Below are positions 25,060 to 50,545 of a stretch of DNA of 57,407 nucleotides, piece by piece. How positions within the stretch are numbered: position 1 is the stretch's first letter; every line of letters begins with the position of its first letter. Position numbers and translations under genes: made by a program. The DNA is from Deltaproteobacteria bacterium. Lineage in GTDB: Bacteria > CG03 > SLGR01 > JBDRKX01. The stretch is taken from positions 1-57,407 of the forward strand of contig JAIVZN010000002.1 in assembly GCA_048634875.1 (NCBI GenBank), in the 5' to 3' direction. Below the pieces are notes generated by a model that did no database searches, was not told the DNA's origin, and saw only the letters and a list, made by a program, of their open reading frames with translations.

Positions 25060-25503
25060 TTATAGTAAGTGTATTATACGCAGTATGAGGTTTGTTAAAA
25101 CTCCTGCGTACAGGTCATCTAACATTATTCCGAGACCGCCGGCAACTATCTGCAGTTTATTCATAGGATAAATTTTCATAATATCAAGAATCCTAAATAT
25201 TATAAACCCTATAATTATAAGACCGATAGATTTTGGTAAAAAAGCCATTGCTACAAAAAATCCCACCATTTCATCTACCACAATTTGAGGAGGGTCTATT
25301 GTCTCCATCATCTCTTCAGTTCTTCCAGCAGTTATCACTCCAATAAAAGTCAGAATTATCAGCATTGTCCAGTAAAATGTAGGTGATACAGGAAGCAGTA
25401 CATAATATATTACTGCAGCAACTATTGTAGCAATTGTACCCGGCGCAGGAAACTTTTCACCTATAAAAAAACCTGTTGCTATAAATCTAATTATCCAGTT
25501 CAT
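25060..25503 (-). CDS. pgpA: Phosphatidylglycerophosphatase A
   Basis: The PGTIATIVA motif, the size and the TM pattern fit the PgpA family. It overlaps pgsA by 4 nt. Confidence 0.8.
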   Translation of the reverse strand: MNWIIRFIATGFFIGEKFPAPGTIATIVAAVIYYVLLPVSPTFYWTMLIILTFIGVITAGRTEEMMETIDPPQIVVDEMVGFFVAMAFLPKSIGLIIIGFIIFRILDIMKIYPMNKLQIVAGGLGIMLDDLYAGVLTNLILRIIHLL

Positions 25504-26033
25504 ATATCCTCCTTAAACAATTCCTTGTTTTCTATTAAATAAACAAAGCCTGAATACACAGTTATTACTGCCGTTAAAACCACGATATATTGTGCCATAT
25601 ATCTAAATTTTCCCGTTATAAACATTAAGAGTATTAAAAATATTGCAGCAAACTGAAATGTTGTCTTGAATTTCCCTGTGTAAGTCGCAGCAATAATTTT
25701 ACCTTTAGATAATGCAAACATTCGCAACCCATTTATAGTAAATTCTCTTGCTATAATCAATATTACTGGCCATGCTTTAACAGACAATTCATCTAATTGA
25801 ACAAAAATTATAAAAGCAGAAGATATAAATAGTTTATCGGCAAGCGGGTCAAGAAACTTGCCAAGATTGGAAACTTCGCTTCTATGCCTTGCAATTTTCC
25901 CGTCTATATAATCAGTTAATGAAGCTATAATAAAAATTATTAATGCTGCTATCTTATAAGAAAACAGGAGGAAAATAACAAATGGTATTATCATTATTAT
26001 TCTGAGCACTGTTAGTTTATTTGCTAAATTCAT
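25500..26033 (-). CDS. pgsA: CDP-diacylglycerol--glycerol-3-phosphate 3-phosphatidyltransferase
   Basis: It carries the CDP-alcohol phosphatidyltransferase motif DYIDGKIAR...GKFLDPLADK. Confidence 0.85.
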   Translation of the reverse strand: MNLANKLTVLRIIMIIPFVIFLLFSYKIAALIIFIIASLTDYIDGKIARHRSEVSNLGKFLDPLADKLFISSAFIIFVQLDELSVKAWPVILIIAREFTINGLRMFALSKGKIIAATYTGKFKTTFQFAAIFLILLMFITGKFRYMAQYIVVLTAVITVYSGFVYLIENKELFKEDI

Positions 26034-26685
26034 TTATAAATTCTATCTCGTTTATCTCACCGACGCTCCCTTCTTTTATATCTATTTTCTGGTATTCATC
26101 CTGGGAACTTTTACGATAATATATATCAATACCTTTTGTGTAACCTATACGGATTTTCAGCGACTTTCCTGCTTTCCAGTATTTTGTTATTCCTGCTTGA
26201 AGTGTAGTTTCATCCACAATTTTATCGTCAATTACAACTTTCACCCATGTTGGTTCAGTTGTAATTCCTTTTACCATAATAAATTCTGGAATAGTATTCT
26301 CAACCGTAACAGTTTTCTTGTATTTTGTCTTAATTATTGATTTATAAGGCAGGTAGTAATGTAATACATATAAAACTAAAATTAAAATAATTAATACTAT
26401 GCCTGTAAAAACAGGTAAAAATTTATTTTTTCTTTTTTGCTTACTTTTACTTTCTAATGGAACAATATTTTCATCTTCAAATATCTCTATGCCATTTACA
26501 GAAATCCCTAAATAATCAGCATAAGTTTTTAAGAAGCTCTTCGCATAAAATTTCCCTGGAAAAATATCAAAATTTCCTTCTTCTAAAGCTCTAAGTTTAG
26601 TAACAGAAATTTTCATCTCCTGAGAAATTTGATTTAATGAAAGCCCCCTTTTTTTTCTTTCCTTTTTTAATTCAATATAATTCAC
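26017..26685 (-). CDS. rodZ: RodZ-like cytoskeleton protein (HTH + TM + C-terminal domain)
   Basis: The N-terminal HTH (RKKRGLSLNQISQEMKISVTKLRALEEGNFD) is followed by ...FPGKFYAKSFLKTYADYLG and then a single TM helix. The start is GTG. Confidence 0.7.
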   Translation of the reverse strand: MNYIELKKERKKRGLSLNQISQEMKISVTKLRALEEGNFDIFPGKFYAKSFLKTYADYLGISVNGIEIFEDENIVPLESKSKQKRKNKFLPVFTGIVLIILILVLYVLHYYLPYKSIIKTKYKKTVTVENTIPEFIMVKGITTEPTWVKVVIDDKIVDETTLQAGITKYWKAGKSLKIRIGYTKGIDIYYRKSSQDEYQKIDIKEGSVGEINEIEFINEFSK

Positions 26686-26702
26686 TTGTAAATAAATCCT
26701 AT

Positions 26703-26890
26703 ATTGAGACCTAAATGATGTTTTTTTTGCGACTTGTGACTTTTTAGTGAAACTATACCGTTAAAAAACTAAAACTTGTTTGAGCCCAACTCTTCATGAA
26801 GAGCTGGGCGAGTTTTTTAGTTTTAGGTATAGTCTCATGTGCCAAAGGCAAAAAGTCTCCGGAGCAAAAAAATATATTTTTAGGGCTCAA
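26703..26890 (-). repeat. Long-hairpin intergenic element X, copy 1 (about 188 nt; the module extends to 26686-26938)
   Basis: It is an imperfect palindrome centred on CTCTTCATGAAGAG (26790-26803), with about 94 nt per arm and outer ends attgagacctaaa...tttagggctcaat. It is near-identical to the reverse complement of 49635-49823. The strand given is the direction of flanking transcription. Confidence 0.85.
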
Positions 26891-26932
26891 TTATTTTTAT
26901 CTCCTTTTGTTAGCTGAAAGCCCATGTCCGTT

Positions 26933-27595
26933 TCACTCAAAATCAAGGATATTCACATCATTGCCTGCCTTAAAACTAAAACAATCATCATTTAAAACAG
27001 GATTTAAGATATAATTTGTAAATATAGTTACTGATTTAAAATTAGGCGCATATACTACTGTCTCCTCTGGAAGATATGTATCAGTATTAAAAAATATAAT
27101 CATATTATCAAAATTATATTCAGTAGAAAGAATGGGGACGGTTCTGATACTTTTCCCATTCTTTCTATTTTCATTTACACTGAGTTTGAAATTTTTTTTC
27201 AAAAGTCCGAATGAGTCTGATGATAGAATCACTGAAGTCGTTACGCCAAGCATATCAATAAAATTATTACTTTTTTGCTTTGTTGCCTGTTTAATCTCAG
27301 GTATGTATGTAAATAAGTATCCATCTGAAAAATAAATTTCCTGTATATGAGGTTTTTGATATATAATTTTAAGATTATCCGGTCTTTTAAAAAAAACCTC
27401 GGCTTTGATAGTTTGCGTACTATCAGCAATAAAAGTATTTTGCTGGAAAGAAAATGAAATTGTTCTCACTTTGCTCATTCTCTCAGTTATCTGCTTAGAT
27501 AACTCCTCTACACTATTACACAGCGCAACCTGCACAATGCAGGATATCAACATAAAATATAAAATATGAATCTTTATCTGTTTAACATTCCTCAT
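26933..27595 (-). CDS. LolA-like outer-membrane lipoprotein carrier
   Basis: It has a signal peptide and the LolA-like pattern (F.Q......G....KRPDNLKIIY..P..QEIYFSDGYLFTY.P). The conserved ftsK-lolA adjacency is present. Confidence 0.6.
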   Translation of the reverse strand: MRNVKQIKIHILYFMLISCIVQVALCNSVEELSKQITERMSKVRTISFSFQQNTFIADSTQTIKAEVFFKRPDNLKIIYQKPHIQEIYFSDGYLFTYIPEIKQATKQKSNNFIDMLGVTTSVILSSDSFGLLKKNFKLSVNENRKNGKSIRTVPILSTEYNFDNMIIFFNTDTYLPEETVVYAPNFKSVTIFTNYILNPVLNDDCFSFKAGNDVNILDFE

Positions 27596-29670
27596 GTGCG
27601 TAAATTTCTCAGGTATTCTTCAGACACAAGTACTTCTCTGCCTTTAACACCTCCATCATTGCTTATAATACCGTTAGCTTCCATCTTATCAATGATTCGG
27701 GCTGCGCGGTTATAACCAATACTTAGACGACGCTGTAAAAGCGATGTAGATGCCTTTTTTAATCTTATAACCGTCTCTACTGCTCTCGGGTATATTTCAT
27801 CTTTATAATCAATCTCCGCCTCATTTTTTTTAAATTTATCCTGCAGTTTAAGTCCGGGCACATATCCATAATTTAAATTCTTTAAATACTCAACAACTGC
27901 TTCTACTTCCTTTCTTGAAATGAAACATCCCTGTAATCTTTCAGCTAAAGGAAGTTCAGTTGCAAGATACAGCATATCGCCTTTGCCAAGTAGTTTTTCT
28001 GCGCCATTTGAATCTAATATTGTCCTGGAATCTACTCCGCTTAACACATTAAAAGCAATTCTTGCAGGAAGATTTGCCTTTATAATACCGGTTATTATAT
28101 CTACTGACGGTCTCTGAGTAGCAAGTACAAGGTGTATCCCTACAGCTCTTGCCATCTGCGCAATTCTGACTATTGCAATTTCAACTTTATCTTTAGCTAC
28201 AACCATCAGGTCAGCAAGTTCATCAATAACTACTACAATACGGGGAAGTTTTTTATTACTTTCCACTATTTTATTATATGCATCTATATTTGCTACATTG
28301 TTTTTTGAAAGAATGTCATACCTTTCATCCATTTCAAGTGTAACAGCCTGAAGCATCTTAACCGCCTTATTGCTGTTCGTAATAACTTCTGAATCTAAAT
28401 GAGGTATGCCATTATATACAGGCAGTTCAACTCTTTTTGGATCTATAAACAGAAACCTGACATCTTCGGGTGAGGATTTAAAAAGTATACTGTTAATAAG
28501 TGCGTGTATTGCTATGCTTTTTCCCGACCCGGTTGCGCCGGCAAGTAAAAGATGAGGCATATCGGAAAGATCTACTATTTTAAAATCACCATCCACAGAC
28601 TTCCCGAGGCAGTAAGGTAAATTTGCAGTATTAGATTTAAATTTACCTGATTCAATTAAAGTCTTTATATATACTGTTTCCTGTTGTATTGCAGGAACTT
28701 CAACGCCGACAGCAGCTTTGCCGGGTATGGGAGTAAGAAGCCGGACTGTTTTTGCCTCAAGCGCCATTGCGATATTTGAATCTAAATTTCTGATACGCGA
28801 TAGTTTTATATCCGGGGGGAGCGTAACCTCGTAACGGGTGGTTGCAGGCCCTATCAACACTCCTGATATACGAGCCGAAATACCAAAGTTTGCCAGAACT
28901 TCTATTAATTTTTCACCTCTTTTATTTTCTTCGTCTTTCTTTAACTTTATCCGCGGTTGAACATTTAAGAGGTCTAACGGTATTGCATAATCAACCTTTT
29001 CGGGAATTGTGGCAGGCCGATTATCGGACGCTCGGGCTTTGTTTAAATCAGCCGAGCAAGCTCGGCCACTGTCGGGGCCTGATTTATCAAGCCCTCGTGC
29101 CGGATAATCTTTTATATGTTTTTTTTTGACTTTCTTTTCTACTTTAGTTACAACCCGGGGCTTTTTTATTTTAGATTTCTTCGGTAATTTTATTAAAAAC
29201 AAAACAACTTTTTTAATGGAAACATCTGCCATAAGAATTAATGCTATCAATACAAGCGCAGTAGAAATAATGTATGCCCCAACTTTCCCAAAAGTAATCT
29301 GTATGATAACATCACTGGAAAAATCGCCTAATATTCCACCACTGCCTTCTGAAATTATGTGTAAAAGGATACTCCCGCCAAGAATAATCATTACCAATCC
29401 GGCGCACATTGAGTACTTAAACGGAAACTTTTTGTGGCGGATTTCTGTAATAGCCCACCAGATAAGAACAACTGGTACTATATAACATATATACCCGAGG
29501 AACTCTTTAAGGCTTCCGGAAAGCACTGCTCCTACAGCTCCCACATATTTTTTATCAGGTGTCAATATGAAGGCAAATATCAAAATTATAGAGAACGCCA
29601 GTAAAATGATTCCAGTAATATCCTTTTTTTTTGTAGAATCTTTTATATTTTTCTTACTTTCAACTTTCAA
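27592..29670 (-). CDS. ftsK: DNA translocase FtsK
   Basis: It has N-terminal TM helices, a low-complexity linker, the motor domain (Walker A GATGSGKS; VVVIDELADLM) and a C-terminal gamma wHTH (LLQRRLSIGYNRAARIID). The only available start is a TTG inside a heptamer repeat. Confidence 0.95.
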   Translation of the reverse strand: MKVESKKNIKDSTKKKDITGIILLAFSIILIFAFILTPDKKYVGAVGAVLSGSLKEFLGYICYIVPVVLIWWAITEIRHKKFPFKYSMCAGLVMIILGGSILLHIISEGSGGILGDFSSDVIIQITFGKVGAYIISTALVLIALILMADVSIKKVVLFLIKLPKKSKIKKPRVVTKVEKKVKKKHIKDYPARGLDKSGPDSGRACSADLNKARASDNRPATIPEKVDYAIPLDLLNVQPRIKLKKDEENKRGEKLIEVLANFGISARISGVLIGPATTRYEVTLPPDIKLSRIRNLDSNIAMALEAKTVRLLTPIPGKAAVGVEVPAIQQETVYIKTLIESGKFKSNTANLPYCLGKSVDGDFKIVDLSDMPHLLLAGATGSGKSIAIHALINSILFKSSPEDVRFLFIDPKRVELPVYNGIPHLDSEVITNSNKAVKMLQAVTLEMDERYDILSKNNVANIDAYNKIVESNKKLPRIVVVIDELADLMVVAKDKVEIAIVRIAQMARAVGIHLVLATQRPSVDIITGIIKANLPARIAFNVLSGVDSRTILDSNGAEKLLGKGDMLYLATELPLAERLQGCFISRKEVEAVVEYLKNLNYGYVPGLKLQDKFKKNEAEIDYKDEIYPRAVETVIRLKKASTSLLQRRLSIGYNRAARIIDKMEANGIISNDGGVKGREVLVSEEYLRNLRT
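29021..29104. repeat. Cluster of short GC-rich palindromes embedded in the ftsK linker
   Basis: The palindromes are CCGATTATCGG (within 29021-29047), GCCGAGCAAGCTCGGC (29061-76) and GGGCCTGATTTATCAAGCCC (29085-29104). The last two recur in the glyA/upp spacer (49536-51 and 49863-82). Confidence 0.7.
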
Positions 29671-29683
29671 CTTTCAACTTTTT
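29656..29683. repeat. Heptanucleotide tandem repeat (ACTTTCA x3 plus a partial unit) at the ORF71/ftsK junction
   Basis: The sequence is actttca actttca actttca acttttt. It contains both the ORF71 stop (29660-62) and the ftsK TTG start (29668-70). Confidence 0.85.
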
Positions 29684-29875
29684 TACTATTATCTTCCAAC
29701 TGTCTTTTTCTAATTCCACCAGTCCCTCTTTCATAAGTCCTCCAATGGCAAGCAGAAGTTCCGTTCCTTTACATTCAAGGTGGAGTTTTAAATCTACCAG
29801 TTCAACTCTTTCATTTATCTCGAGGAAATCCTTAACTCTGTCTCTCAACTTACTAACATGAGAATTAATGGACAT
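29660..29875 (-). CDS. Hypothetical 71-aa protein (possible wHTH); it may be a detached N-terminal segment of FtsK
   Basis: The ORF ends ...VKKLKVES*, while FtsK begins MKVESKK. The two frames differ by one 7-nt repeat unit. Confidence 0.4.
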   Translation of the reverse strand: MSINSHVSKLRDRVKDFLEINERVELVDLKLHLECKGTELLLAIGGLMKEGLVELEKDSWKIIVKKLKVES

Positions 29876-30321
29876 TATAGGTTTTCTATTTTATAAATAG
29901 GCTGGTTTACTTTTACGGGAGAACCATTTTCAATAAGAATTTCCAATATTCTGCAATGCCGTTCAACCTGAACTTCATTCATAAGTTTCATTGCTTCAAT
30001 TATACATACTGTAGTTCCTATCATTATCTCATCATTTTCTTTTACAAAAGGCTCAGCATTAGGGGAAGGTGACCTGTAAAATACTCCATTCATTGGAGAT
30101 CTAATGTACTGGGCTGTATCTTCTTCTTTTTTCTCTTCTTCAGCAACTTTGGATTCAACTGAAGTGAAAACCGGAGAAGTATCATCCCGCCTGCGAAGTA
30201 TTATTTTGAAATCATCTATCTCTTCCCAGATAATTTCCTGAAGGTTCTCTTCAAGCATTATCTCATACACCTTTTTGGCAAACTTTTTAATTTGTATATT
30301 TGAAGACTTCTTCTTATTCAC
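29875..30321 (-). CDS. accB: Biotin carboxyl carrier protein of acetyl-CoA carboxylase
   Basis: It carries the biotinyl-lysine motif CIIEAMKLMNEV. The start is GTG. Confidence 0.85.
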   Translation of the reverse strand: MNKKKSSNIQIKKFAKKVYEIMLEENLQEIIWEEIDDFKIILRRRDDTSPVFTSVESKVAEEEKKEEDTAQYIRSPMNGVFYRSPSPNAEPFVKENDEIMIGTTVCIIEAMKLMNEVQVERHCRILEILIENGSPVKVNQPIYKIENL

Positions 30322-30341
30322 CCGTAAATAAACTCCTTAAT

Positions 30342-30448
30342 ATGAGTCCTAAATGATGCATTTTTTGCGAGCTTTAAGACTTTTTAAGTGAAACTATGCC
30401 GTAAAAAAACTAAAACTTGTTTGAGCGTTAGCGAGTTTTTTAGTTTCA
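30342..30448 (-). repeat. Long-hairpin element X, copy 3 (one arm truncated)
   Basis: The sequence is gagtcctaaatgatgcattttttgcgagctttaagactttttaagtgaaactatgccgtaaaaaaactaaaacttgtttgagcgttagcgagttttttagtttca. The partner arm is cut off at the pnp stop codon. Confidence 0.75.
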
Positions 30449-30452
30449 TCTC

Positions 30453-32531
30453 CTAATCTCCCTCTAACGCTTTAGACCTGCTCAACTTTATTTTCCCCCT
30501 GTCATCTATTCCCAAACATTTTACTTTAACTTTGTCTCCAACATTTAAAATGTCAGTTACCTTATTTACTCTATAATCAGCCAGTTCAGATATATGCACA
30601 AGCCCTTCCTTACCGGGAAGTATTTCTACAAAAGCGCCAAAATCTAAGACATTTTTAACCGTTCCTTCATATACTTTTCCGGCTTCTGCATCAGTTGTGC
30701 ATAATGTTACCATTTCTACAGCTTTATCTAAATTCTCCTTTGAACAGGCACTTATAGACACTACCCCTGTATCATCTACTTCTATTACAGCGTCTGTAGT
30801 TTCCTGTATGGATTTAATGTTTTTACCACCAGGACCTATCAATAAACCTATTTTTTTAGGATCTATTGTTATGTTTACCATCTGGGGAGCATATTGCGAT
30901 AAACTTTCCCTGGGTTCTGATATCACTTTTTCAATTTCTCTGAGAGTTCCAAGCCCGGCATTTTTTGCCTGATGGAGTGCTCTTGTCAGTACCTCTTTAC
31001 TTATACCACTGACTTTTATATCCATCTGAATAGCAGTTATACCATTTTTAGTACCCGCAACTTTAAAATCCATATCACCTGCATAGTCCTCATCACCCAA
31101 CATATCAGTTAATACTACATCTCCAATTATACCCATTCCAACACCTACGACAATATCTTTCATAGGCACTCCTGCATCCATCAGTGCAATAGAACCTGCG
31201 CAAATTGTCGCCATTGATGATGAGCCGTTTGATTCTAAAATATCCGATACTAATCTTATGGTATATGGAAATTTTTCCTTATCAGGAAGAAATGGAGCAA
31301 TAGCTTTTTCTGCAAGTAAACCATGCCCTATTTCTCTTCTACCAACACCTCTTTCAGGTTTTACCTCTCCAACTGAATACGGCGGAAAATTATAATGGAG
31401 CATAAAATTTTTCTTGTATTCACCTGAGAGCGCATCCATTATCTGCTGGTCCCTGTTATTACCAAGAGTAACAACACAAAGGGATTGTGTTTCTCCCTTT
31501 GTAAACAGGCCCGAGCCATGAGTTCGCGGAAGAAGCCCGTTAGAACAGCTTATTTGCCTTAATTCATCAGGCTTTCTCCCATCAACTCTTATTCCTTCTT
31601 CTATCACTAACTTCCTCAACAACTCTTTCTCTAATTTATTTATAATCAGATTTATCTGTGCGGTTTTTTCTTCATCCTCTTCAACTTCAATAAAATTACC
31701 TAAAACCTCTTCTTTTATATTACCTAACTTTTTTGAGCGTTCAGCTTTTGATAATGCGCCTTTAAAGACCTCGTACATCTTTGAAGCAGCAAAATCAGCT
31801 ATCTTGTTCTTTAATTCGTCGTCAACTTCAGGCGGAGTAAAAGTAATTTTCTCTTTGCCTGCCTTCTTGACAATATTTTGCTGAAACTTCACAATTTTTT
31901 CAATTACAGCTTTTGCTATATCTAATGCCCCTAAAATAGTATCTTCAGAAACTTCAGATGATTTACCCTCTAACATAACTATTCCGGATTCTTTACCTGC
32001 AATAACTAAATCAATTTCACTCTTTTCTAACTCCTGAAAAGTCGGATTAATGATAAACTTGTCTTCAATTTTGCCAATTCTAACTGCGCCAACAGGGCCA
32101 TCAAATGGAACTGAAGATAAACTAACTGCGCAGCTTCCGCCAATCATTGCAGGTATGTCAGTATCATTTTCACCATCTATGGATAAAACAGTTACCATTA
32201 CCTGCACCTCGTCCTGATAACCTTCAGGAAAAAGAGGACGAATTGGACGGTCTATTAACCTTGATGTTATTATTTCTTTTTCCTGGGGCCTGCCCTCTCT
32301 CTTAAAAAATCCTCCGGGTATCTTCCCTGCCGCATAAGTTCTTTCCCTGTAATCAACCATAAGAGGGAAAAACCCGGCATTTCTTTTTGATTCAGATGCG
32401 CAGCATGTAGCAAGCACAACAGTCCCCCCATAAGTTACTTTCACTGCTCCAGCAGCCTGACGCGCAAGTTCGCCTGTCTCAATTATTAATTCTCTGCCAT
32501 TTACTTCTATTTTTTCAACAATTTTTTCCAT
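30453..32531 (-). CDS. pnp: Polyribonucleotide nucleotidyltransferase (PNPase)
   Basis: The architecture is two RNase PH domains plus KH plus S1, with canonical PNPase blocks throughout. Confidence 0.97.
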   Translation of the reverse strand: MEKIVEKIEVNGRELIIETGELARQAAGAVKVTYGGTVVLATCCASESKRNAGFFPLMVDYRERTYAAGKIPGGFFKREGRPQEKEIITSRLIDRPIRPLFPEGYQDEVQVMVTVLSIDGENDTDIPAMIGGSCAVSLSSVPFDGPVGAVRIGKIEDKFIINPTFQELEKSEIDLVIAGKESGIVMLEGKSSEVSEDTILGALDIAKAVIEKIVKFQQNIVKKAGKEKITFTPPEVDDELKNKIADFAASKMYEVFKGALSKAERSKKLGNIKEEVLGNFIEVEEDEEKTAQINLIINKLEKELLRKLVIEEGIRVDGRKPDELRQISCSNGLLPRTHGSGLFTKGETQSLCVVTLGNNRDQQIMDALSGEYKKNFMLHYNFPPYSVGEVKPERGVGRREIGHGLLAEKAIAPFLPDKEKFPYTIRLVSDILESNGSSSMATICAGSIALMDAGVPMKDIVVGVGMGIIGDVVLTDMLGDEDYAGDMDFKVAGTKNGITAIQMDIKVSGISKEVLTRALHQAKNAGLGTLREIEKVISEPRESLSQYAPQMVNITIDPKKIGLLIGPGGKNIKSIQETTDAVIEVDDTGVVSISACSKENLDKAVEMVTLCTTDAEAGKVYEGTVKNVLDFGAFVEILPGKEGLVHISELADYRVNKVTDILNVGDKVKVKCLGIDDRGKIKLSRSKALEGD

Positions 32532-32552
32532 AATATATCCTTTATGTTTGTC

Positions 32553-32822
32553 CTACTTTCTCAAATTTAATTTTTTAATAACTTCATTATACTTTTCTTC
32601 GTTTTTCTTTTTAATGTATCTAAGTAATTTCCTCCTGCGTGATACTAATTTTAACAAACCATAACGAGAGTGAAAATCCTTTTTATAGGTATTCATATGC
32701 GTGGTAAGACTTTTTATCCTTTCTGTAAGAACGGCAATCTGTACCTCCGGCGAACCGGTATCCTTATCATCTCTCTGATAATCCTTTATAACCTCTGTTT
32801 TTTTTTCTTTTGTTATAGACAA
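32553..32822 (-). CDS. rpsO: 30S ribosomal protein S15
   Basis: The 89-aa protein contains [16 protein letters not shown]...KKD.HSRRGLL, and the classical rpsO-pnp pairing is present. Confidence 0.95.
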
Positions 32823-32868
32823 TTTTTCCTCCTTTTTTATTTTTTAATTTAGTTTTTTTCTTAACATG

Positions 32869-33047
32869 AGTCCTGGAAATGTATTTTGAGTGACTTCAGT
32901 ACTTTTAGCAAATGATATGGCATAGAAAAAACTCAAACTGTCTGAGGCTGACTTATAGAGGCAGCCGAGTTTTTGAGTTTCAGGCATATCATTGCGTGCC
33001 GTAAGGCAAAAGTACTGCGGAACGAACAAATTCATTTTCTGGACTCT
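32869..33047 (-). repeat. Long-hairpin element X, copy 4 (divergent variant)
   Basis: The sequence is gagtcctggaaatg...agtacttttagcaaatgatatggcatagaaaaaactcaaac...ggctg-acttatagag-gcagcc...gtttttgagttt...ggcatatcattgc...aaaagtact...cattttctggactc. The helix order matches copies 1/2, with both strands of several helices changed. Confidence 0.7.
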
Positions 33048-34320
33048 ATGCGGCATAGGTTCTATTCCTGCCTTCCTGTTTTGCTTTGTACAGAGCATCA
33101 TCAGCTTTTTTAATTATATCTTGAGAGTAGACCCCGTCATCAGGATATGCAGAAATCCCTGCACTTACATGAACTCCGATATTACCTCCAATCTTTCTTT
33201 CAATTAAATCCACCCTTATTCTTTCACCAACAACCATGGCATCCTTTTTTGCGGTTTCAGGCAACAGTATTACAAATTCGTCGCCGCCATACCTTGCAAC
33301 AGCATCTGATTCCCTGACAGTTTTCTTTAAATGAAGTGACACTTTTACCAAAAGTTCATCACCTATAAGGTGCCCGTAAGTATCATTTATATCCTTAAAA
33401 TTATCAACATCAATCATTATAAGAGAGAAATTAAGATCATATCTCTGCGCCCTGCTTAATTCTATCTGCATGCGTTCCTGGAAATATCTATGATTGTAAA
33501 GACCTGTAAGGCCATCTGTAACTGAAAGAAGCTGTGTCTTTTTATAAAGAAGCGTATTTTCTATTGCAACAGCCGAGTGGTTGGCAAAAGTAGCAAGAAG
33601 TCTTCTTGAACTATTTGAAAACTCTTTAGCAGGTTTATTTTTTGTGACTATTATTGCACCGGCTATATTATCTCTTGATCTGAGCGGCGCACACAATGTA
33701 CTTCTTACTGTTTCAGACATACTTTCCAGTGATATGATTTCATCTTTTTCAGACCATCCGGGCAGCTTTTCAGACGCTTTATCAAGCAGGATACCTTCAA
33801 TATCATCCTGAATTCCCCAGTTAGATTTTATCTCCCACTCATGTGTCGTTTCATCAAATAGTATTATAATCCCCCCTTCTGCTGATACGCTCTTAACACA
33901 TGAAGATAATATTAAAACCATAAGTTCATCAAGCCCTATATTTGAAGTAATTCTCTGCGAAACCCGGTGAAGTTCAACCTGTATCTGTCTTTCCATAAGG
34001 ATACTGCTTAAAAGCTGTGAAGTAAAATCACCCATAATTTCAATTTTTTTGCCTTTTACTTTTCTCATAAGAGTTTTTTGAAGCTTATAATCATCCGTAA
34101 GGTTTAGAACTGCATCAGGCAGCTCGGTATCTGCTATATACTTTACCCAATCTGAATCTGTCTTTATCCCAAGTCTCTGGGCAAGTTTAATTCCTGAAGC
34201 ATTGGAATTTTTATCAATAACTGCTATGATATCATAAGCATCATCCTCATAAAGGATTTCAATTGTCGCAAGACCTCTTCTTCCGCCGCCAATAATTAAA
34301 ATCTGTTTATTCTTATTCAT
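33046..34320 (-). CDS. GAF-domain diguanylate cyclase (GGDEF) with an N-terminal Rossmann-like domain
   Basis: The N-terminus is ILIIGGGRRG, a GAF-like region occupies the middle, and the C-terminus is LTGLYNHRYF...DVDNFKDINDTYGH..GD..L...RYGGDEFVILL. Confidence 0.85.
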   Translation of the reverse strand: MNKNKQILIIGGGRRGLATIEILYEDDAYDIIAVIDKNSNASGIKLAQRLGIKTDSDWVKYIADTELPDAVLNLTDDYKLQKTLMRKVKGKKIEIMGDFTSQLLSSILMERQIQVELHRVSQRITSNIGLDELMVLILSSCVKSVSAEGGIIILFDETTHEWEIKSNWGIQDDIEGILLDKASEKLPGWSEKDEIISLESMSETVRSTLCAPLRSRDNIAGAIIVTKNKPAKEFSNSSRRLLATFANHSAVAIENTLLYKKTQLLSVTDGLTGLYNHRYFQERMQIELSRAQRYDLNFSLIMIDVDNFKDINDTYGHLIGDELLVKVSLHLKKTVRESDAVARYGGDEFVILLPETAKKDAMVVGERIRVDLIERKIGGNIGVHVSAGISAYPDDGVYSQDIIKKADDALYKAKQEGRNRTYAA

Positions 34321-34329
34321 TATTTTAAA

Positions 34330-34368
34330 TTAGGTAATGGGTATTAGGTTCCCATTCCCCATTATTAG
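34330..34368. repeat. Heptad-built hairpin (TAATGGG type)
   Basis: The sequence is ttaggtaatgggtattagg|ttcccattccccattattag, located in the GGDEF/ribF spacer. Confidence 0.55.
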
Positions 34369-34391
34369 TTTACTTGTATGAAAGTATGATG

Positions 34392-35291
34392 TCAACTCTG
34401 TCTAATCTCATTTATATCCTGTTGTATTCTTTCATTTAATTCTTTAAGGTTCTTAAATTTTTCAGGTTCTCTTATTTTTCTTATTAATTTTGCTCCATAT
34501 ATATCTTTTTCCATTCCCTGTTTGTAATTAAATAAATGAATTTCTATTTGAAACGGTTTGCTCTGAAGTTTGCTATTCGAAACATGACCGATAAAACAGG
34601 CGCCGCTGACTATATCTCTCTGATTTTTAAATAAAGCCGCTGAGCTAAATACACCTAATGGTAAAAGCTTTTCCATTGCAACTTTAAAATTTATTGTCGG
34701 GTATCCGATCTTCCTTCCTATACCTCTGCCTGAAGTAGTATGTCCGGTAAAAAAATAATTTCTACCTAAAAGCGTACTGGCAAGTTCAATTTTTCCAGCT
34801 ACAATTAACTCTCTAATATATGATGAGGATACTTTTTTCCCATCTAATTTTTTCAGGCCAGCTACCACCAATTCAAATTTTTTACTTACATATTTTCCTA
34901 ATGTTTTGATATCGCCGCATCTGTTCTTCCCAAACTTAAAATCTTCTCCTATAACTAAACAATGAGTATTTAGTTTCTTAAAAAGAAAACTCTCTACAAA
35001 TTCCTCTTGACCCCAGTCCTTCCAGTCTTTATCATTTTTTAGAATAATTGCCCGTTTAAAACCTGCTTTTTCAAACAGATGTAATTTTTCTTCATTTGTT
35101 GTTAAAAGTTCTCTCTTTTTAGTAACAGGTTCAAATGTAATCACTGTAGGTTCTAATTTGAATTTATTTGAAATATCTATTGTCTTACAGACAATCTTCT
35201 GATGACCTATATGAAACCCGTCAAAAACTCCTATTGTAACAGCCTGCTTCTTTTTAAGTTTTACATTTTTATAATTATCAATTACTTCCAA
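34392..35291 (-). CDS. ribF: Bifunctional riboflavin kinase / FMN adenylyltransferase
   Basis: The N-terminal segment is GVFDGFHIGHQ, and the C-terminal riboflavin kinase segment is GRGIGRKIGYPTINF...IEIHLF. Confidence 0.9.
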   Translation of the reverse strand: MEVIDNYKNVKLKKKQAVTIGVFDGFHIGHQKIVCKTIDISNKFKLEPTVITFEPVTKKRELLTTNEEKLHLFEKAGFKRAIILKNDKDWKDWGQEEFVESFLFKKLNTHCLVIGEDFKFGKNRCGDIKTLGKYVSKKFELVVAGLKKLDGKKVSSSYIRELIVAGKIELASTLLGRNYFFTGHTTSGRGIGRKIGYPTINFKVAMEKLLPLGVFSSAALFKNQRDIVSGACFIGHVSNSKLQSKPFQIEIHLFNYKQGMEKDIYGAKLIRKIREPEKFKNLKELNERIQQDINEIRQS

Positions 35292-36154
35292 TTAAATACT
35301 CTCCTCAATTTAAAACTTCCATTAACTTTTTCTGCTAATGCCAGCAGCTTAAAATCAGGTGAATATACTCCAAATGTATTTTCTTCTGTTTTTCCGGAAA
35401 CTTCAATAATATCATTTGCTGTAAAGCATATACCATATGGAATACCACAAGCAGATTTACTGTCAACAATAATATGTGGAAAATTCAACATTGCGTCATT
35501 TATATCTCTGAAACCCCTGTACCAGTCTTTTCCCTCCGGTTGAACCGCTTCCTCCAATCTAAAACCATTAACATCTGTTCTAACTAAATCTTTAAGGTAA
35601 CCTTCTGTTCCTAATTTACGCGCTATATCTACTGATAGAGTTCTTATATATGTACCTGATGAACAAGTTACAGCAAATTTAACTAAAGGCGAAGTATATT
35701 GCATAAGTCTTATATCAAAAATCCGCGTTTCCTGAATTCTTTTTGGCGGTATCTTACCATTCCTTTTAATACTGTAAAAAGTCTTTCCATGATATTTTTT
35801 AGCGGAATACTGCGGAACTTCGTGGATATAAGTACCTTTAAATTCTTTTAATGTTTCTTCAATTTCTTCTTTTTGAAATTCAACATCCTCGCATTTTTCA
35901 ATTTCACCACCGCTATCCAATGTAGTAGATTTCCATCCAAGTTCCACCACAGCTTCGTAAGTCTTGTTTCCCTTCATAAATAACTCAAATGCTTTGCACG
36001 CTTCACCAAGTAATATTATTAAAACACCTTTTGCTTCAAGATCAAGTGTTCCCGCATGACCTGCCCTGCGACTTCCTGAAATTTTTTTCAGGGTATCTGC
36101 CACTTTAAAGGAGGACCATCCCTTAGGCTTATTTACATTGACAATTCCGTCCAT
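35282..36154 (-). CDS. truB: tRNA pseudouridine(55) synthase
   Basis: It carries GIVNVNKPKGWSSF...AGHAGTLD (catalytic Asp) and GTYIRTL. It sits in the truB-ribF synteny. Confidence 0.9.
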   Translation of the reverse strand: MDGIVNVNKPKGWSSFKVADTLKKISGSRRAGHAGTLDLEAKGVLIILLGEACKAFELFMKGNKTYEAVVELGWKSTTLDSGGEIEKCEDVEFQKEEIEETLKEFKGTYIHEVPQYSAKKYHGKTFYSIKRNGKIPPKRIQETRIFDIRLMQYTSPLVKFAVTCSSGTYIRTLSVDIARKLGTEGYLKDLVRTDVNGFRLEEAVQPEGKDWYRGFRDINDAMLNFPHIIVDSKSACGIPYGICFTANDIIEVSGKTEENTFGVYSPDFKLLALAEKVNGSFKLRRVFNWK

Positions 36155-36164
36155 AATTTCATTT

Positions 36165-36226
36165 TAGATTTATTGATTGACAATTTGGTAATTGATTTCA
36201 ATCTACAATCGTCAATCTACAATCTA
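36165..36226. repeat. Heptad-built hairpin (CAATCTA type)
   Basis: The sequence is tagatttattgattgacaatttggtaattga|tttcaatctacaatcgtcaatctacaatcta. It overlaps the nrnA stop codon. Confidence 0.55.
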
Positions 36227-37245
36227 TCTAATTCCTTCTCCACAGCATCCAAGACTTTTCTTTTAACTTCTTTAAATTCACCTTTTATCAAACATCCTTC
36301 TGCATTGTGGTGTCCCCCTCCGCCAAAATGATTTGCTATCTTATTAACATTTACACCACCTTTAGAACGAAACGAAACTTTTATACCATCTAAGCCGGGT
36401 ATCTTTCTAAACAATATCCCAACTTCCACTCCCTTTATATTACGCGCAAAATTTATAACACCCTCTAAATCTTCAATAGAGGCACCCGTAGTTTGAAACA
36501 TTTCAGGGGTCACTGTTATATATCCAACTCTTTTAGAATTAGTCAGGGTTAAAGATTCTATTGCTTTTGATACAAGCCTGAGACCCTCTATTTCACTGTT
36601 TCTGTATATAAGGGTAGATACTTTTTGAGGAGAAATAAATTTATCAATCAGCCCGGCAGCAATTAAGTGAGATTGAGGGGTTGTATTATCTTCCTGAAAT
36701 TTATCTGTGTCAGTTACAATTCCAATATATATACAGAGAGCAAGGTCATAATCAAACTCAATATTCATCTGAGACGCTATATTAAAAATTAACTCGCAGA
36801 CAGAAGAACTCTTCGGTTTAACATAATTAATATCGCCAAACTCATGATTTAACTGGTGATGGTCAATGTTTATAATTGTCCGAGCCGATGTCAACAGACC
36901 CGATAGCCCTTCAATTCTCTTTTTGTCAGAACAATCAAGTACAAACCCGATATCTTTAGTAGGACAGGCATCTTGCCTGTCAGTAGTATCACCTCCAAAT
37001 GCAGTTTTAATCTTATCTATTCCTTTCAGGAAACTATAAACTCTCGGCAAAGCACTCGGAGAAATAACTTCTACATCTAAACCGAGTTTCCTTAAGATAT
37101 GATACATTGCAAGCGCCCCTCCAATTGCATCGCCATCAGGCCGCGGATGCATTGTAACAAAAGCGCTCTTTGAATTTTCTATCACATTTATAATTTTTGA
37201 GATAATATTTCTATCTTCAACCGGTATATCTAAATTAAGTTTCAT
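36217..37245 (-). CDS. nrnA: DHH/DHHA1 phosphoesterase, NrnA-like oligoribonuclease / pAp phosphatase
   Basis: It carries the HPRPDGDAIGG, DHH (INIDHHQ) and GGGGHHNA motifs. Confidence 0.8.
   Translation of the reverse strand: MKLNLDIPVEDRNIISKIINVIENSKSAFVTMHPRPDGDAIGGALAMYHILRKLGLDVEVISPSALPRVYSFLKGIDKIKTAFGGDTTDRQDACPTKDIGFVLDCSDKKRIEGLSGLLTSARTIINIDHHQLNHEFGDINYVKPKSSSVCELIFNIASQMNIEFDYDLALCIYIGIVTDTDKFQEDNTTPQSHLIAAGLIDKFISPQKVSTLIYRNSEIEGLRLVSKAIESLTLTNSKRVGYITVTPEMFQTTGASIEDLEGVINFARNIKGVEVGILFRKIPGLDGIKVSFRSKGGVNVNKIANHFGGGGHHNAEGCLIKGEFKEVKRKVLDAVEKELDRL
36958..36986. repeat. 19-bp GC-rich palindrome with 5-bp direct flanks, in-frame inside nrnA
   Basis: The sequence is agtag|gacaggcatcttgcctgtc|agtag. 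The same 19-mer is intergenic at 47176-47194. The palindrome plus one flank is 24 nt and encodes DRQDACPT. Confidence 0.75.
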
Positions 37246-37248
37246 CCT

Positions 37249-37629
37249 TCAACTTTCTATCTTCCATCTTCTATCTTCCTCGCTGTCCCTTATTTTTTTA
37301 AATATCATTTCTAAATGTTGCGCTTTTTCAGGAGTATCATCATATATCATTTGTATCTTTGGTATATACCTTAACACAGCTTCTTCAGCAAGCCTGCATC
37401 TCAGGAACTTATGCATCTGTATAATTGTGTTTTTTTGTTTTTGAATATCCTTCTTTCCACCTATCAGCGAGAAATACACCTTAGCGATACTCAGGTCTGT
37501 AGTTACTTCAACATCAGTAACAGTAACTATACCCATTTTAGGATCAGAAATTTCCTGAGATAATATTTTTCCTAAAATTTGTTTTATTAAACTTGATACC
37601 TTTTGCGTTCGCCTACTTTTTTTCAACAA
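37249..37629 (-). CDS. rbfA: Ribosome-binding factor A
   Basis: RbfA family blocks are present (R..KV...I...L...I...DP....VTVT.VEVT.DL..AKVYFS). The start is TTG, behind AAGGGGG. Confidence 0.9.
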   Translation of the reverse strand: MLKKSRRTQKVSSLIKQILGKILSQEISDPKMGIVTVTDVEVTTDLSIAKVYFSLIGGKKDIQKQKNTIIQMHKFLRCRLAEEAVLRYIPKIQMIYDDTPEKAQHLEMIFKKIRDSEEDRRWKIES

Positions 37630-37902
37630 AAACCCCCTTGCTCATAAATACCAATTCAGGATACTTTTTTAAGATCAAAGAACTTTTTTGAAAAAGCTGC
37701 TGAATAGATTTTTTATCCCGGCATACTCCGCATATACCTAATTCTCCAACGCATGTAGCAATTCCTGATAATTAACTTCTGATACAGAAAGATTAAGGGT
37801 TGCTTTAAGCCTGTCTTTGATACTGTTTAAATATTTTCGCTTTTCTTTAAGACTTCGTATGCCAGGCAGGTAAATCTCTATCCGTTCAACACCTATAAAC
37901 AT
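37613..37902 (-). pseudogene. DUF503 (YlxP-like) gene with a 1-nt frameshift
   Basis: The frame from the ATG at 37902 reads MFIGVERIEIYLPGIRSLKEKRKYLNSIKDRLKATLNLSVSEVNYQELLHALEN*. The expected continuation, ...VGELGICGVCRDKKSIQQLFQKSSLILKKYPELVFMSKGVFVEKK*, is open in another frame and ends overlapping the rbfA start. The total span is 290 nt (3n+2). The ORF track shows no ORF of 60 aa or more here. Confidence 0.6.
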
Positions 37903-37911
37903 CCGTTTACT

Positions 37912-37992
37912 TTAAGGAATGTGAGACTATGAATGATGGATGAAGGAAGAAAATTTATTCCCTATTCCCTCATGCCTCATTCCTCATTCCTG
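37912..37992. repeat. Heptad-built hairpin, GGAATGWG family (copy 3)
   Basis: The sequence is ttaaggaatgtgagactatgaatgatggatgaaggaagaaaat|ttattccctattccctcatgcctcattcctcattcctg, located in the infB/DUF503 spacer. Confidence 0.65.
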
Positions 37993-37995
37993 TTT

Positions 37996-39744
37996 TCATT
38001 GAGCTTCTTCTAAAGTTCTTTTTCTTTTTTCTAATTGGAAACTTTCTATTATATCTCTAACTTTTACATCATTAAAATTATCTATGTTGATGCCACACTC
38101 ATAACCCTGATTTACTTCAGCAACATCATTCTTAAATCTCTTAAGTGCCGCTATACTTCCCACATATACAATTTTTGAATCCCTTAATACTCTAACCTGT
38201 GCTTTTCGTAAAACTTGTCCATTTATAACATTACATCCTGCAATGGTTCCCACTCTTGAAATAATATATATTCTTTTAACCTCAGCCTGTCCAAGTGTAA
38301 TTTCACTTTCTTCAGGTTCAAGCATTCCTTCAAGAGATTTTTTAATATCATCAATAATTTCGTATATAACTCTATAATTTCTTATCTGAACCCCTTCACA
38401 TTCCGCTTCTTTCATAATTCCGCCGCTTGTAGATATATTAAAACTTATTATTATGGCATTAGAAGCAGATGCAAGCATTATATCTTTTCTCGTTACTGCT
38501 CCAACCCCACTATGAATTATCTTCAAAGCTACTTCTTCTATCTGTAATTTTATCAATGCATCTTTTATTGCTTCAAGCGAGCCGGTTACATCTGTTTTAA
38601 GTATTATTCTAAGCTCTTTGTTCTCCTCGCCAAGCAGTTGTTTCTGTAAATCCTCCAGAGTAACCTGTCCGGATTGAGAAACTTCGTCTTTCTGTATCTT
38701 AAGTTTTCGTTTTCCTACAATTTCTCTTGCAGAAATTTTATCTTCAACAACATTCAGAATATCTCCTGTCATAGCAAGTCCCTCAAATCCAAGAATTCTT
38801 ACAGGGGTTGATGGACCGGCTATTTTCAATCTCAGGGAAGCTTCATCAGTCATAGCCTTTACCTTGCCTGAAACAGTACCGCATACAAATGAATCCCCTA
38901 TTTTAAGAGTGCCTTCAGTTACTACAATTGTTCCTGTCGGCCCGGTTTGTTTATCAAGTTCCGTCTCAATAACAATGCCCTTTACAGGACCATCAATGGG
39001 AGCTTTTAATTCCAGCATCTCTGCCTGAAGAAGAATCATCTCAAGAAGTTCATCTACATGTTGATTCTTTTTAGCAGAAATTTCAATTGCAATAACATCG
39101 CCTCCCCAGTTTTCAGTTAAAATACCATGGTGCGAAAGCTGAGTGCGAACTTTTTCAGCATCAAACTCAGGAAGGTCCATTTTATTAATTGCCACTATAA
39201 TTGGCACATCTGCAGCTTTTGCATGGTTTATTGCTTCAATTGTCTGCGGCATAACACCGTCATCGCCGGCAATAACTAATACCACTATATCTGTAATCCG
39301 GGCGCCTCTTGCTCTCATCGCAGTAAATGCTTCATGCCCAGGAGTATCTATAAATACAATTGAACCCTTACCCTTTAAATCAACCTTGCATGCGCCTATA
39401 TGTTGAGTTATACCACCGCTTTCGCGGGCAATTACATTTGTATGCCTTATTGTGTCAAGAAGCTGGGTTTTCCCATGATCTACATGTCCCATTACAGTCA
39501 CTACAGGAGAACGGGGGATAATGTCTCTTCTTATCTGTTCTACTTGAACTTCTTCCTTTATTTCAGGTTTCGGCTCTTGTTTCTGCTCCTTAAAACTTTC
39601 TTTAATTAGCCCGGCTTCTTCTTCAGTTACAGATGAAACATGAGATTTCGCCTTTATACCAAGCTCCTTAGCTTCTTCTAATATTATTTTATAATCCCTA
39701 TCCAGATCCTGAGCTAATTTATATATTCTGATTTTATTTGTCAT
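37996..39744 (-). CDS. infB: Translation initiation factor IF-2 (short N-terminal form)
   Basis: The G domain carries [13 protein letters not shown] and NKMD, and canonical C-terminal IF-2 domains follow. Confidence 0.97.
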
Positions 39745-41436: not shown

Positions 41437-41443
41437 AATTATT

Positions 41444-41469
41444 AAAAAATGTGGCAACTACTGCCACAT
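41444..41469 (-). terminator. Terminator-like leader hairpin 8 nt upstream of the rimP start (candidate attenuator)
   Basis: The minus strand reads ATGTGGCA-GTAGT-TGCCACAT followed by TTTTT, then AATAATT-ATG. Confidence 0.45.
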
Positions 41470-41508
41470 TATTTATATTGTATAACATATTTTATAATCT
41501 TTTTCAAG

Positions 41509-41533: not shown

Positions 41534-41591
41534 TTTAGAAATGTCCTGTTTTCTGCAAAATAAAAACTTCCTCTTTTCAGTCCGAACAGGA

Positions 41592-42534: not shown

Positions 42535-42542
42535 CAAAAGCA

Positions 42543-49533: not shown

Positions 49534-49634
49534 TGGCCGAGCTTGCTCGGCGTGGTAGGAGATTAAGAGATTGGGGTGTAAGTGATGAAGAATGAAACGG
49601 ACATGAGCTTCTCTCGCAAAAGCGGATGAAAATA

Positions 49635-49823
49635 ATTGAGCCCTAAAAATGTATTTTGTTGCTCCAGAGACTTTTTGCCTTTGGCACATGAAACTATGCC
49701 TAAAACTAAAAAACTCCCCAGCCCCTGCACGCAGGAGCTGGGTCAAACAAGTTTTAGTTTTTTAACGCCATAGTTTCATTAAAAAATCACAAGTCGCAAA
49801 AAATGCATCATTTAGGTCTCAAT
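49635..49823 (+). repeat. Long-hairpin element X, copy 2 (inverted relative to copy 1; the module extends to 49593-49905)
   Basis: The sequence is attgagccctaaaaatgtattttgttgctccagagactttttgcctttggcacatgaaactatgcctaaaactaaaaaactcccc...gggtcaaacaagttttagttttttaacgccatagtttcattaaaaaatcacaagtcgcaaaaaatgcatcatttaggtctcaat. Confidence 0.85.
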
Positions 49824-49909
49824 TCGACGCCTACGCAAAATTGTAGAGCCTTGATTTTGTAGGGGCTTGATTTATCAAGCCCGATAAAGGATTTATTTAC
49901 GAGTGTAAG

Positions 49910-50545
49910 ATGAATAAAGTAAATATAGTTAAACATCCGCTGATACAGGATAAGCTGACAAGACTGAGAGATGTCAATACAAAAAGCAGGGATTTCAGGG
50001 CATTATTAAAAGAATTATCTGCGCTGATGGCATTTGAAGTAACAAAAGATTTAAATACAACCAAAGTCCATGTGAGGACTCCGCTTGATACGGAAGCAGA
50101 TGGAGTTGTAGTTGAACATTACCAGATTGCTCTTATCCCTATACTTCGCGCAGGTATTGGTATGGTAAATGGAGTTCTTGAAGTTATTCCCCAGGCAAGG
50201 GTTGGACATATTGGCATATACAGGGACCCTGATACACTGAAAGCAGTTAAATATTACCAGAAACTTCCTTTGAATATAGATAGATGTCAGTTAGTAATAC
50301 TGATTGATCCCATGCTTGCAACGGGCCATACCATGGTTGCCACTTTAAATATCTGCAAGGAGATGGGAGCAAAAAATTTAAGAATAATGTGTTTAGTTGC
50401 AGCGCCTGAAGGAATTAATGAAGTTAAAAAATACTATAAAGATATTCCAATATTTACTGCAGCAGTAGATGAGTGTCTGAATGAGCATGGCTATATTCTG
50501 CCGGGTTTAGGTGATGCAGGAGACAGGATATTTGGCACCAAGTAA
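49910..50545 (+). CDS. upp: Uracil phosphoribosyltransferase
   Basis: It carries the PRPP-binding site LIDPMLATGHT and the C-terminal YI.PGLGDAGDR.FGT. Confidence 0.95.
   Translation: MNKVNIVKHPLIQDKLTRLRDVNTKSRDFRALLKELSALMAFEVTKDLNTTKVHVRTPLDTEADGVVVEHYQIALIPILRAGIGMVNGVLEVIPQARVGHIGIYRDPDTLKAVKYYQKLPLNIDRCQLVILIDPMLATGHTMVATLNICKEMGAKNLRIMCLVAAPEGINEVKKYYKDIPIFTAAVDECLNEHGYILPGLGDAGDRIFGTK

Follow-up and report, generated by a model that had tools for sequence, protein, structure and literature searches.

A nested, gene-less repeat as the putative translation start region of about 50 unrelated genes in one bacterial genome

We analysed a 57,407-nt stretch of DNA from a Deltaproteobacteria bacterium (contig JAIVZN010000002.1 of assembly GCA_048634875.1, hereafter the window), in which the genes rodZ, accB and upp carry the same short motif, M, made up of a Shine-Dalgarno (SD)-like sequence, a spacer and a GTG. 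Comparison with the whole genome suggests a mobile repeat, nested, gene-less and specific to this lineage, of which M is the conserved right end (TWAAGGAKTTTATTTAC + RRR, where R is a purine), and about 50 unrelated housekeeping genes appear to start from this same borrowed sequence. The family is probably selfish DNA that inserts at TGA and restores both the start codon and the SD of the gene behind it, and not a regulon. It would then be a large, clean case in which ~3% of a genome's genes have a selfish repeat as their translation start region, alaS, proS, cysS, pgk, pyrH, ndk, hup and rodZ among them.

Repeat anatomy and gene starts

The genome was examined whole (1.85 Mb in 163 contigs, numbered here with the prefix C; 35.8% G+C; assembly 97% complete), the window being contig C2. 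The preliminary description of the window had counted three copies of the motif. The core TTTATTTACRRGTG indeed has three exact matches in the window, at rodZ, accB and upp only, but the genome holds ~60 copies of the family, with 29 exact copies of the core and about an equal number more in which ATG replaces GTG. Almost every core copy in the genome is preceded by the same sequence, ...CATCATTTAGGTCTCAAT, and BLAST of the three window copies against the genome returned 117, 106 and 62 matching segments. The 34 copies that reach 170 nt or more can be aligned from one end to the other, sharing their termini and differing in their middles, which vary or are deleted. A full copy comprises, in order, a left RTGA flank, a module Y, a module X of ~190 nt, sometimes a nested repetitive extragenic palindrome (REP; module Z), and M. 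The left end of the unit is AACGGACAT, and Y consists of AACGGACATG, a short GC hairpin (variable in sequence but conserved in pairing) and ACAAAAGSRGATGAAAATAA. X is a long palindrome (TTGAGCCC...GGTCTCAA) with a variable central GC hairpin. M forms the constant right end and reads TWAAGGAKTTTATTTAC + RR + RTG, followed by AAA; in its TAAGGAG and TAAAGGA variants the TAA is in frame with the RTG. The spacer of M, TTTATTTAC, repeats in inverted form the GTAAATAA/GAAAATAA that stands at X's left foot, so that M would belong to an extended stem in which the SD is an unpaired insert.

The modules are nested in more than one way. Z, a GTAG-tagged palindrome with flanks, sits inside M at 8 places with TAAAGG on either side. 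The ends of X are inverted repeats and X lies between TAA triplets, and an X-less Y-M copy at C20:15525 (58 nt + TGA by hand count) resembles the empty site of X; X was found inside the Y...M frame only and never alone, which the insertion model leaves unexplained. The outer termini, AACGGACAT... and ...TTTATTTACRRR, are not related as inverted repeats, these being confined to the inner X, and in minimal Y-M units the only hairpin is one near the left end. Deletion derivatives without the hairpin, without one half of X or without X altogether always retain the two termini. Tandem Y-X-M arrays occur on C10, C24, C41, C64 and C132, and one left terminus lies within another X, at that X's own CATGAAAC. 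The 301-nt copy at rodZ had no match in 30 other genomes, taken from the same family to the same domain. The 20-mer at the core of X, searched alone, gave 1 match in genome_contigs and 5 in metagenome_contigs, all of them by chance, with records near the genome itself possibly hidden there.

A search for the end of X, made independently of M, yielded 63 matches, of which 6 are left ends read backwards; M stands within 24 nt in 51. A start codon follows TTATTTAC by 0-4 nt in 42 of the 63, and in 28 of these 42 the start codon is the first one of a frame of 100 codons or more, as against 1.8% of all RTG in the genome (binomial p = 4e-39); 14.4% of all genome RTG open 100 codons in any way. The genome-wide search of the motif for abutting starts, as suggested in the preliminary description, gave a similar picture: among 51 copies with X, Y or Z context, 36 open a frame of at least 60 codons (29 of 40 with X, 6 of 8 with Z and 1 of 3 with Y). 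Short frames follow 15 of the repeat-linked copies; for 14 of these, a frame of 80 codons or more begins on the same strand 7-250 nt downstream, which indicates that the orientation is locked to the next gene; some of these copies precede the downstream gene via a second, tandem unit.

The proteins concerned are ordinary ones. A Pfam scan of 57 proteins, from which 7 of 63 frames had been excluded as likely chance matches with one mismatch and no repeat context (two on C1 and one each on C15, C16, C29, C38 and C99) and to which upp had been added by hand, assigned a family to 55. They form a functionally mixed housekeeping set that includes AlaRS, ProRS, CysRS, PGK, PFK, PyrH, NDK, HU, IspF, SurE and TatD as well as Asd, AroA, RibBA, MetF, TrpC, NadC, RNase HII, Ugd and TsaD. 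By hand count, 32 of the 56 proteins starting at the RTG of M have a Pfam model that begins (at model position 4 or less) within residues 1-12, as with HU, Ugd and IspF at residue 1, MTHFR at residue 2, and PGK, SurE, TatD, NDK and PyrH at residue 4. Of the M-linked starts, 24 are GTG and 24 ATG, compared with 150 GTG in the whole set of 912 gene starts; 41 of the 48 have AAA as their second codon, compared with 157 of 912, and the first base of this codon is always A. The SD lies 11-12 nt from the start in 42 of the 48, whereas the 864 other SD-like genes have a G-rich SD peak at -12 to -8, a spacing peak at 5-7 nt and no TTTATTTAC.

TGA flanks, relatives and strain differences

Both ends of the repeat are marked by TGA. 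Downstream of TTATTTAC the sequence runs R, N, R and then T in 51 of 51, G in 51 of 51 and A in 48 of 51. When left termini were defined without their flank, as GGACAT, a GC hairpin and CAAAAG, TGA-AAC preceded 33 of 50 matches, and most of the other 17 were judged non-elements. Before the left TGA stands A (23 copies), G (9) or T (1); the purines before the left and the right TGA are often unequal within one copy, and the right-hand purine therefore looks element-borne. In 10 of the 33 copies an upstream frame of 80 codons or more terminates at the left TGA, compared with 1.9% of all TGA (p = 4e-10), and an old start remaining at the left flank opens just 4-16 codons. The orientation of the element relative to TGA is fixed. 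These flanks would be either a 3-4-bp target duplication or a TGA target joined to a TGA at the element's own end, between which the sequence does not separate. Because TGA flanks both ends, the repeat perhaps supplies no TG-A itself, and may bring just the SD and spacer along with the start codon's first purine, the TG-A coming from the duplicated target.

We propose that the unit integrates at TGA(A) in one orientation. As TGA belongs to every RTG-A start and to every NTGA overlap of stop and start, such a landing would leave both genes whole: the left TGA would continue to stop the upstream gene, or the old start would make a peptide of 4-16 codons, and the element's last purine together with the right TGA would restore RTG as a start without a change of frame. 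Lying 11-12 nt upstream, the AAGGAG of the element would replace the lost native SD or translational coupling, with ribosomes presumably using the SD and start of M, and copies landing elsewhere in genes would be lost. Insertion of this kind would explain why GTG is in excess and why +4 is invariably A, and likewise the exact N-termini, the landings at NTGA and the fixed orientation.

Related genomes preserve uninterrupted junctions at two of the occupied places. The N-termini of PyrH and TsaD align codon for codon with those of relatives, the pyrH start of 12 relatives falling on the GTG of this genome (MKYKR...). The stop of tsf overlaps the start of pyrH as NTGA in 7 of the 12 relatives, with 1 more not scorable; in this genome tsf ends ...CAT TGA/AACGGACAT (slash, junction) and pyrH starts 178 nt later at ...ACGG GTG AAA. 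Likewise, tsaD forms an NTGA overlap with the same upstream gene in 6 of 12 relatives, is separated from it by 11-28 nt in 4 and is not scorable in 2, and in this genome the frame before tsaD ends AGG TGA/AACGG and tsaD starts after a 207-nt unit. The element thus occupies exactly the place of the relatives' NTGA overlap both between tsf and pyrH and before tsaD. At rodZ the upstream stop of relatives lies 2-17 nt before the ATG, with no NTGA overlap.

The family is also polymorphic between strains. Near-identical DNA was found in runs labelled cold-seep and marine-sediment metagenomes, among them a 9352-nt contig of run X2 with 20 differences over the 654-nt piece 26029-26682 (~97% identical). 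This contig fuses window position 26682 to 26923 and so is missing 240 nt at rodZ, made up of M, X and the Y hairpin; it reads ...GAGTGAAACGGACATG/AATTAT..., with ATG standing where this genome has GTG, and retains AACGGACA between two TGAs, which is unexplained. It keeps M at accB (piece 26923-30380). At the start of pgsA it carries 61 extra letters (record positions 4140-4200, between the pieces 25500-26032 and 26029-26682), with TGAA 26029-26032 (of ATGAAT) at both junctions, and comparison with it marks the ATGAA of the pgsA start in this genome (26029..26033, minus strand) as an empty target. Judging from the equality of length, the 61-nt gain would be an X-less Y-M unit plus TGA (58 + 3).

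Copies and neighbouring repeats in the window

The three strings listed in the preliminary description are present in the window at the positions it gave: read on the gene strand, ATAGGATTTATTTACAAGTG-AAT at rodZ (26683-26702, minus), TTAAGGAGTTTATTTACGGGTG-AAT at accB (30319-30340, minus) and AAAGGATTTATTTACGAGTG-TAAG-ATG-AAT at upp (49886-49912, plus). With up to 2 mismatches the core has 9 matches in the window against 3.5 expected, and the 19-mer of the preliminary description, with up to 3 mismatches, has 3 against 0.12 expected. One of the 19-mer matches, at 505-523, is weak and lies elsewhere, and the rodZ copy escapes this search as its SD part is one base shorter. The motif had been placed directly after X at all three genes, an arrangement seen at rodZ; at upp a Z of 63 nt stands between, and accB has only the right half of X. 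The further idea of a portable, repeat-borne SD-spacer-start unit is supported: rodZ, accB and ~50 other genes seem to start from it, and at upp the unit precedes the real ATG by a start-stop pair.

At rodZ the copy is on the minus strand. M (26683..26703; TATAGGATTTATTTACAA + GTG at 26683-26685) is the right terminus of the repeat and carries an SD-like AGGA, an 11-nt spacer and the rodZ start codon. It is followed outward by X (26704..26890), the palindromic module of ~190 nt running TTGAGCCC...GGTCTCAA around its central GC hairpin, recognised from its inverted repeat and from folding (predicted -72.9 kcal/mol, z = -4.9, a stable hairpin), and by Y (26891..26932), delimited by alignment of copies as the left terminus AACGGACATG, a short GC hairpin and ACAAAAGGAGATAAAAATAA. 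The left TGA flank (26933..26935) doubles as the stop of an upstream LolA-like frame (26933..27595, 228 codons). rodZ itself (26017..26685, minus, 222 aa; HTH_25 at residues 6-62, RodZ_C) begins at the GTG of M, and its N-terminal length matches that of relatives within ~1 residue. The assignment of this GTG and that of accB as start codons in the preliminary description is borne out, each being the first start of its frame with no start codon upstream, and no later start is credible for rodZ since the helix-turn-helix domain begins at residue 6.

accB (29875..30321, minus, 148 aa), encoding the biotin carboxyl carrier protein with Biotin_lipoyl at residues 73-145, starts at the GTG of its M (30319..30341; ATTAAGGAGTTTATTTACGG + GTG at 30319-30321). 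Behind M lies a truncated copy that comprises the right half of X (30342..30445, minus, from the alignment of copies), and this half joins the left flank directly as GATGA/AAC, a few bases past the stop of pnp (30453-30455).

The copy at upp is on the plus strand and begins with a left TGA (49593-49595) and Y, together 49593..49635 by alignment of copies. X follows (49636..49822; inverted repeat, alignment of copies), its central hairpin and GAGTTTTTTA being terminator-like on the opposite strand. Next come Z (49823..49885), a nested 63-nt insert with the GTAG-tagged palindrome GTAGGGGCTTGATTTATCAAGCCC, whose junction with M recurs at 7 other sites of the genome, and M itself (49886..49908, with GTG at 49903-49905). 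The preliminary description had noted that this GTG is followed by a stop, and the gene does begin at its own ATG at 49910, 7 nt after the first base of the GTG of M (upp, 49910..50545, plus, 211 aa, uracil phosphoribosyltransferase with UPRTase at residues 7-210). The proteins returned by a related-locus search with Upp were all distant, 57% identical at most. GTG followed at once by TAA amounts to a minimal start-stop pair 1 nt before the real ATG, which could be a restart site.

Parts of the family were met in other settings. At 47154-47230 of the window, the left terminus (GAAACGGACATG) precedes another palindrome (GACAGGCATCTTGCCTGTC) and 7-nt units in arrays, which stand in place of X and M, and the left terminus of the family thus combines with other modules. 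On C35, at ~1231 (plus), a left terminus directly follows a tRNA-like 3′ end that ends CACCA (...TTCGAATCCCACCTTCGGCACCA/TGAAAC). A Y module alone, without X or M, lies at C73:3811 (plus), where a 419-codon frame ends in TGA on one side of it and an ATGAAA start stands on the other; AAAAGGG is 1 nt from this ATG, which leaves the start without usable SD spacing. Other strain-variable small repeats adjoin gene starts in the window: the 37-nt stretch 34329-34365 is skipped in contigs of runs X2, X3 and X4, the 74-nt stretch 36155-36228 is skipped in X4, and in place of the 86-nt stretch 37907-37992 X4 has 77 other letters. TsaD (C65:1518-2585) matches its relatives in two pieces, residues 1-121 and 159-355, around an in-frame insert of ~37 residues that is absent from 13 relatives and may be another repeat inside the gene.

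Origin of the family and known systems

The preliminary description had supposed that the common 5′ context beside a large hairpin could serve coordinated translational control or let the hairpin hide the SD. A host regulon of this sort, in which the cell would co-control translation by concealing the SD and start or through an M-binding factor, would account for ~50 genes with one identical initiation region, and some copies, such as that of pyrH, do pair the spacer and start with the left foot of X (GUAAAUAA with UUAUUUAC). Folding of 21 full copies gave a mean unpaired probability of 0.39 for the spacer (mostly paired) and of 0.39 for the start, close to the 0.45 of controls. The SD, however, is predicted to be more open in these 21 copies than in 40 control genes (0.68 vs 0.42-0.46), which does not support the supposed hiding, and the genes are functionally unrelated, ranging over aminoacyl-tRNA synthetases, glycolysis, nucleotide and cofactor metabolism, envelope and repair. 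Moreover, the rodZ copy is missing, and so dispensable, in the ~97% identical strain, the family was not found in the 30 relatives examined, ~15 repeat-linked copies start no gene, and Rfam returned no family for the element but only chance-level rows (E 0.58-0.96). We therefore regard a regulon as very unlikely. That the motif is the organism's best ribosome-binding region, arisen independently at each gene, is hardly conceivable: the 16S rRNA tail is canonical (GGATCACCTCCTTTCT), which makes AAGGAG a good SD, but the other SD-like genes manage with a shorter spacing and without this spacer, and in 51 copies M runs on into another 100-250 nt of repeat.

A duplicated leader resembling REP2 of Neisseria is another reading, which we consider improbable. 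A copied segment of promoter, 5′ untranslated region and start would here have been spread by recombination or gene conversion between short RTGAAA identities, and not by transposition. Such spread would suit RRRTGAAA-like strings at both ends, left flanks that often are older M-like sequence, the tandem Y-X-M arrays, and an outer unit with neither a linked transposase nor terminal inverted repeats; Neisseria REP2 and Borrelia IR have been described with a promoter plus a ribosome-binding site (RBS) and an ATG joined to open reading frames (ORFs) (PMC3184786). Against it, the junctions are base-exact at unrelated genes, the 61-nt gain is flanked by TGAA at a site that is empty in this genome, and the deletion derivatives always keep both termini, as expected of ends required for movement. 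A consensus scan of the rodZ and upp copies also found 0 sigma-70-like promoter sites, though the promoter types of this lineage may differ, and transcription probably reads through from upstream. In the RNA run X17, examined as contigs, no piece fell on any copy in 25500-45400. The terminator-like centre of X, which has this character on the opposite strand only, would itself select against the reverse orientation. A narrower version of TGA insertion holds that the family is specialised on 4-nt stop/start overlaps, splitting coupled genes and repaying them with an SD and a rebuilt start, while the X hairpin brings the left TGA and the right RTG-A together so that ribosomes restart over ~250 nt in a shunting-like manner and coupling is preserved; we think it unlikely that the family works in this way.

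Several observations weigh against a selfish element that inserts at TGA, which we nevertheless prefer. No transposase could be tied to the family, and no TnpB, IS110 or DDE_Tnp_1 was found in the genome (in 163 contigs, from which one could be missing, and with other DDE families not searched). There is no long autonomous copy either, and no unit exceeds ~310 nt in the assembly. The outer unit lacks terminal inverted repeats and so is no ordinary MITE (miniature inverted-repeat transposable element) of the DDE type. About 17 genes have an exact M but no recognisable X, Y or Z upstream, and the SD of M, 11-12 nt from the start, is at the far edge of the genome's usual range. The rodZ site of the X2 strain is no clean empty site, as it still reads ...TGAAACGGACATG/AAT and would be a footprint or a derivative by deletion, not the pre-insertion state. 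The right flank of the upp copy reads TGT in place of TGA, and ~12 nt (GTGTAAG..ATGAA) stand on both sides, outside the 3-bp rule.

Candidate mobilising genes were few. A single Y1 (IS200/RAYT-like) transposase gene is present at C5:6916-7251 (minus, 227 aa), flanked by inverted copies of a different repeat of the GAATGGGGACGGTTCTGATAC type, which has 27 copies in the genome, many as hairpin doublets; no link between this gene and the family could be shown. A search for Y2 gave no match in the genome, and none in any control genome either. The only GIY-YIG match in the genome is a UvrC-like gene, and no small GIY-YIG gene was found.

Insertion at TGA would explain how mobile DNA persists in tightly packed operons without killing them, and also the excess of GTG-AAA starts that gene callers report in this genome. 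M would be a natural portable SD-spacer-start module. For annotation, identical 5′ ends on unrelated genes need not signal shared regulation. A search of full-text literature found no description of the family, nor of such repeats in Elusimicrobia.

Among known elements, bacterial MITEs of the IS1031 group of the IS5 family produce a 3-bp TNA target duplication. The family resembles such TNA-type MITEs in being small and non-coding, in its 3-bp flanking repeat of the T-N-A type, in its internal deletion derivatives and in an inner X with terminal inverted repeats, and the short direct duplication expected of a DDE-type MITE would be represented by the TGA flanks and by the TGAA around the 61-nt gain. 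It differs in that the outer, M-carrying unit has no terminal inverted repeats, lies in almost only one orientation relative to TGA and has no parent insertion sequence (IS) in the assembly. GC hairpins near the ends and strand-specific placement by a short fixed sequence recall REP/REPIN-RAYT systems and IS200/IS605, as do the one Y1 gene of the genome and the GTAG-tagged palindromes (Z) nested in the family. In REP/REPIN-RAYT systems the repeat flanks the RAYT gene and bears its conserved tag; here Y, X and M lack the GTAG tag and the Y1 gene is flanked by another repeat. Elements of the IS200/IS605 type insert strand-specifically beside a fixed 3-5-nt target, with no duplication, and have subterminal hairpins at both ends; the present family shows a fixed orientation to TGA and, in its minimal Y-M units, a hairpin near the left end alone.

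Repeats that provide start codons have been described before. Pneumococcal BOX elements can give start codons, without an SD (PMC3049150), and MITEAba12 has terminal start codons able to fuse to neighbouring genes (PMC6382973). Mycobacterial interspersed repetitive units (MIRUs) appear to insert at start codons, with an ORF within the repeat coupled at -4 spacing (PMC12548453). They share with the present family small repeats that land at start codons in operons and spare expression, and the 4-nt stop/start overlap; here, too, landings fall on starts or 4-nt overlaps, with 10 of 33 left TGAs being stops and with NTGA overlaps at pyrH and tsaD in relatives. MIRUs keep expression going through their translationally coupled internal ORF, whereas the element here has in-frame stops and brings an SD; a through-ORF overlapping the flanking genes was not found in the element, the frames from the left RTG ending after 4-16 codons. 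MIRUs are tandem units of 46-100 bp, compared with a nested hairpin of ~60-290 nt in this genome.

Beside MIRUs, the closest likeness, drawn by description and not by sequence, is to REP2 and to IR-A and IR-B of Borrelia, which a review presents as dispersed repeats of ~120-150 bp with internal stem-loops, lying immediately 5′ of ORFs and fusing an RBS and start codon to unrelated genes (PMC3184786); REP2 itself, of 120-150 bp, has 26 copies, and the same review asks how such repeats spread. An RBS and start inside the repeat and fused to an ORF are found here as well. REP2 is described as having a promoter, of which the consensus scan of two copies here gave no sign, and REP2 genes are co-regulated and contact-induced, in contrast to the mixed housekeeping set of this genome, which counts ~50 genes against 14-26 for REP2. 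The TGA flanks, the landings at stops and starts, the nested modules and the strain polymorphism further distinguish the present family, and its flanks, the junctions of relatives and the strain differences point to insertion at TGA as an answer to the question of spread. On the sequence evidence, the family would combine the outcome of REP2 with the landing place of MIRUs. What sets it apart from both is that it brings an SD while having no through-ORF, and also its TGA flanks, the nesting of its modules and its scale.

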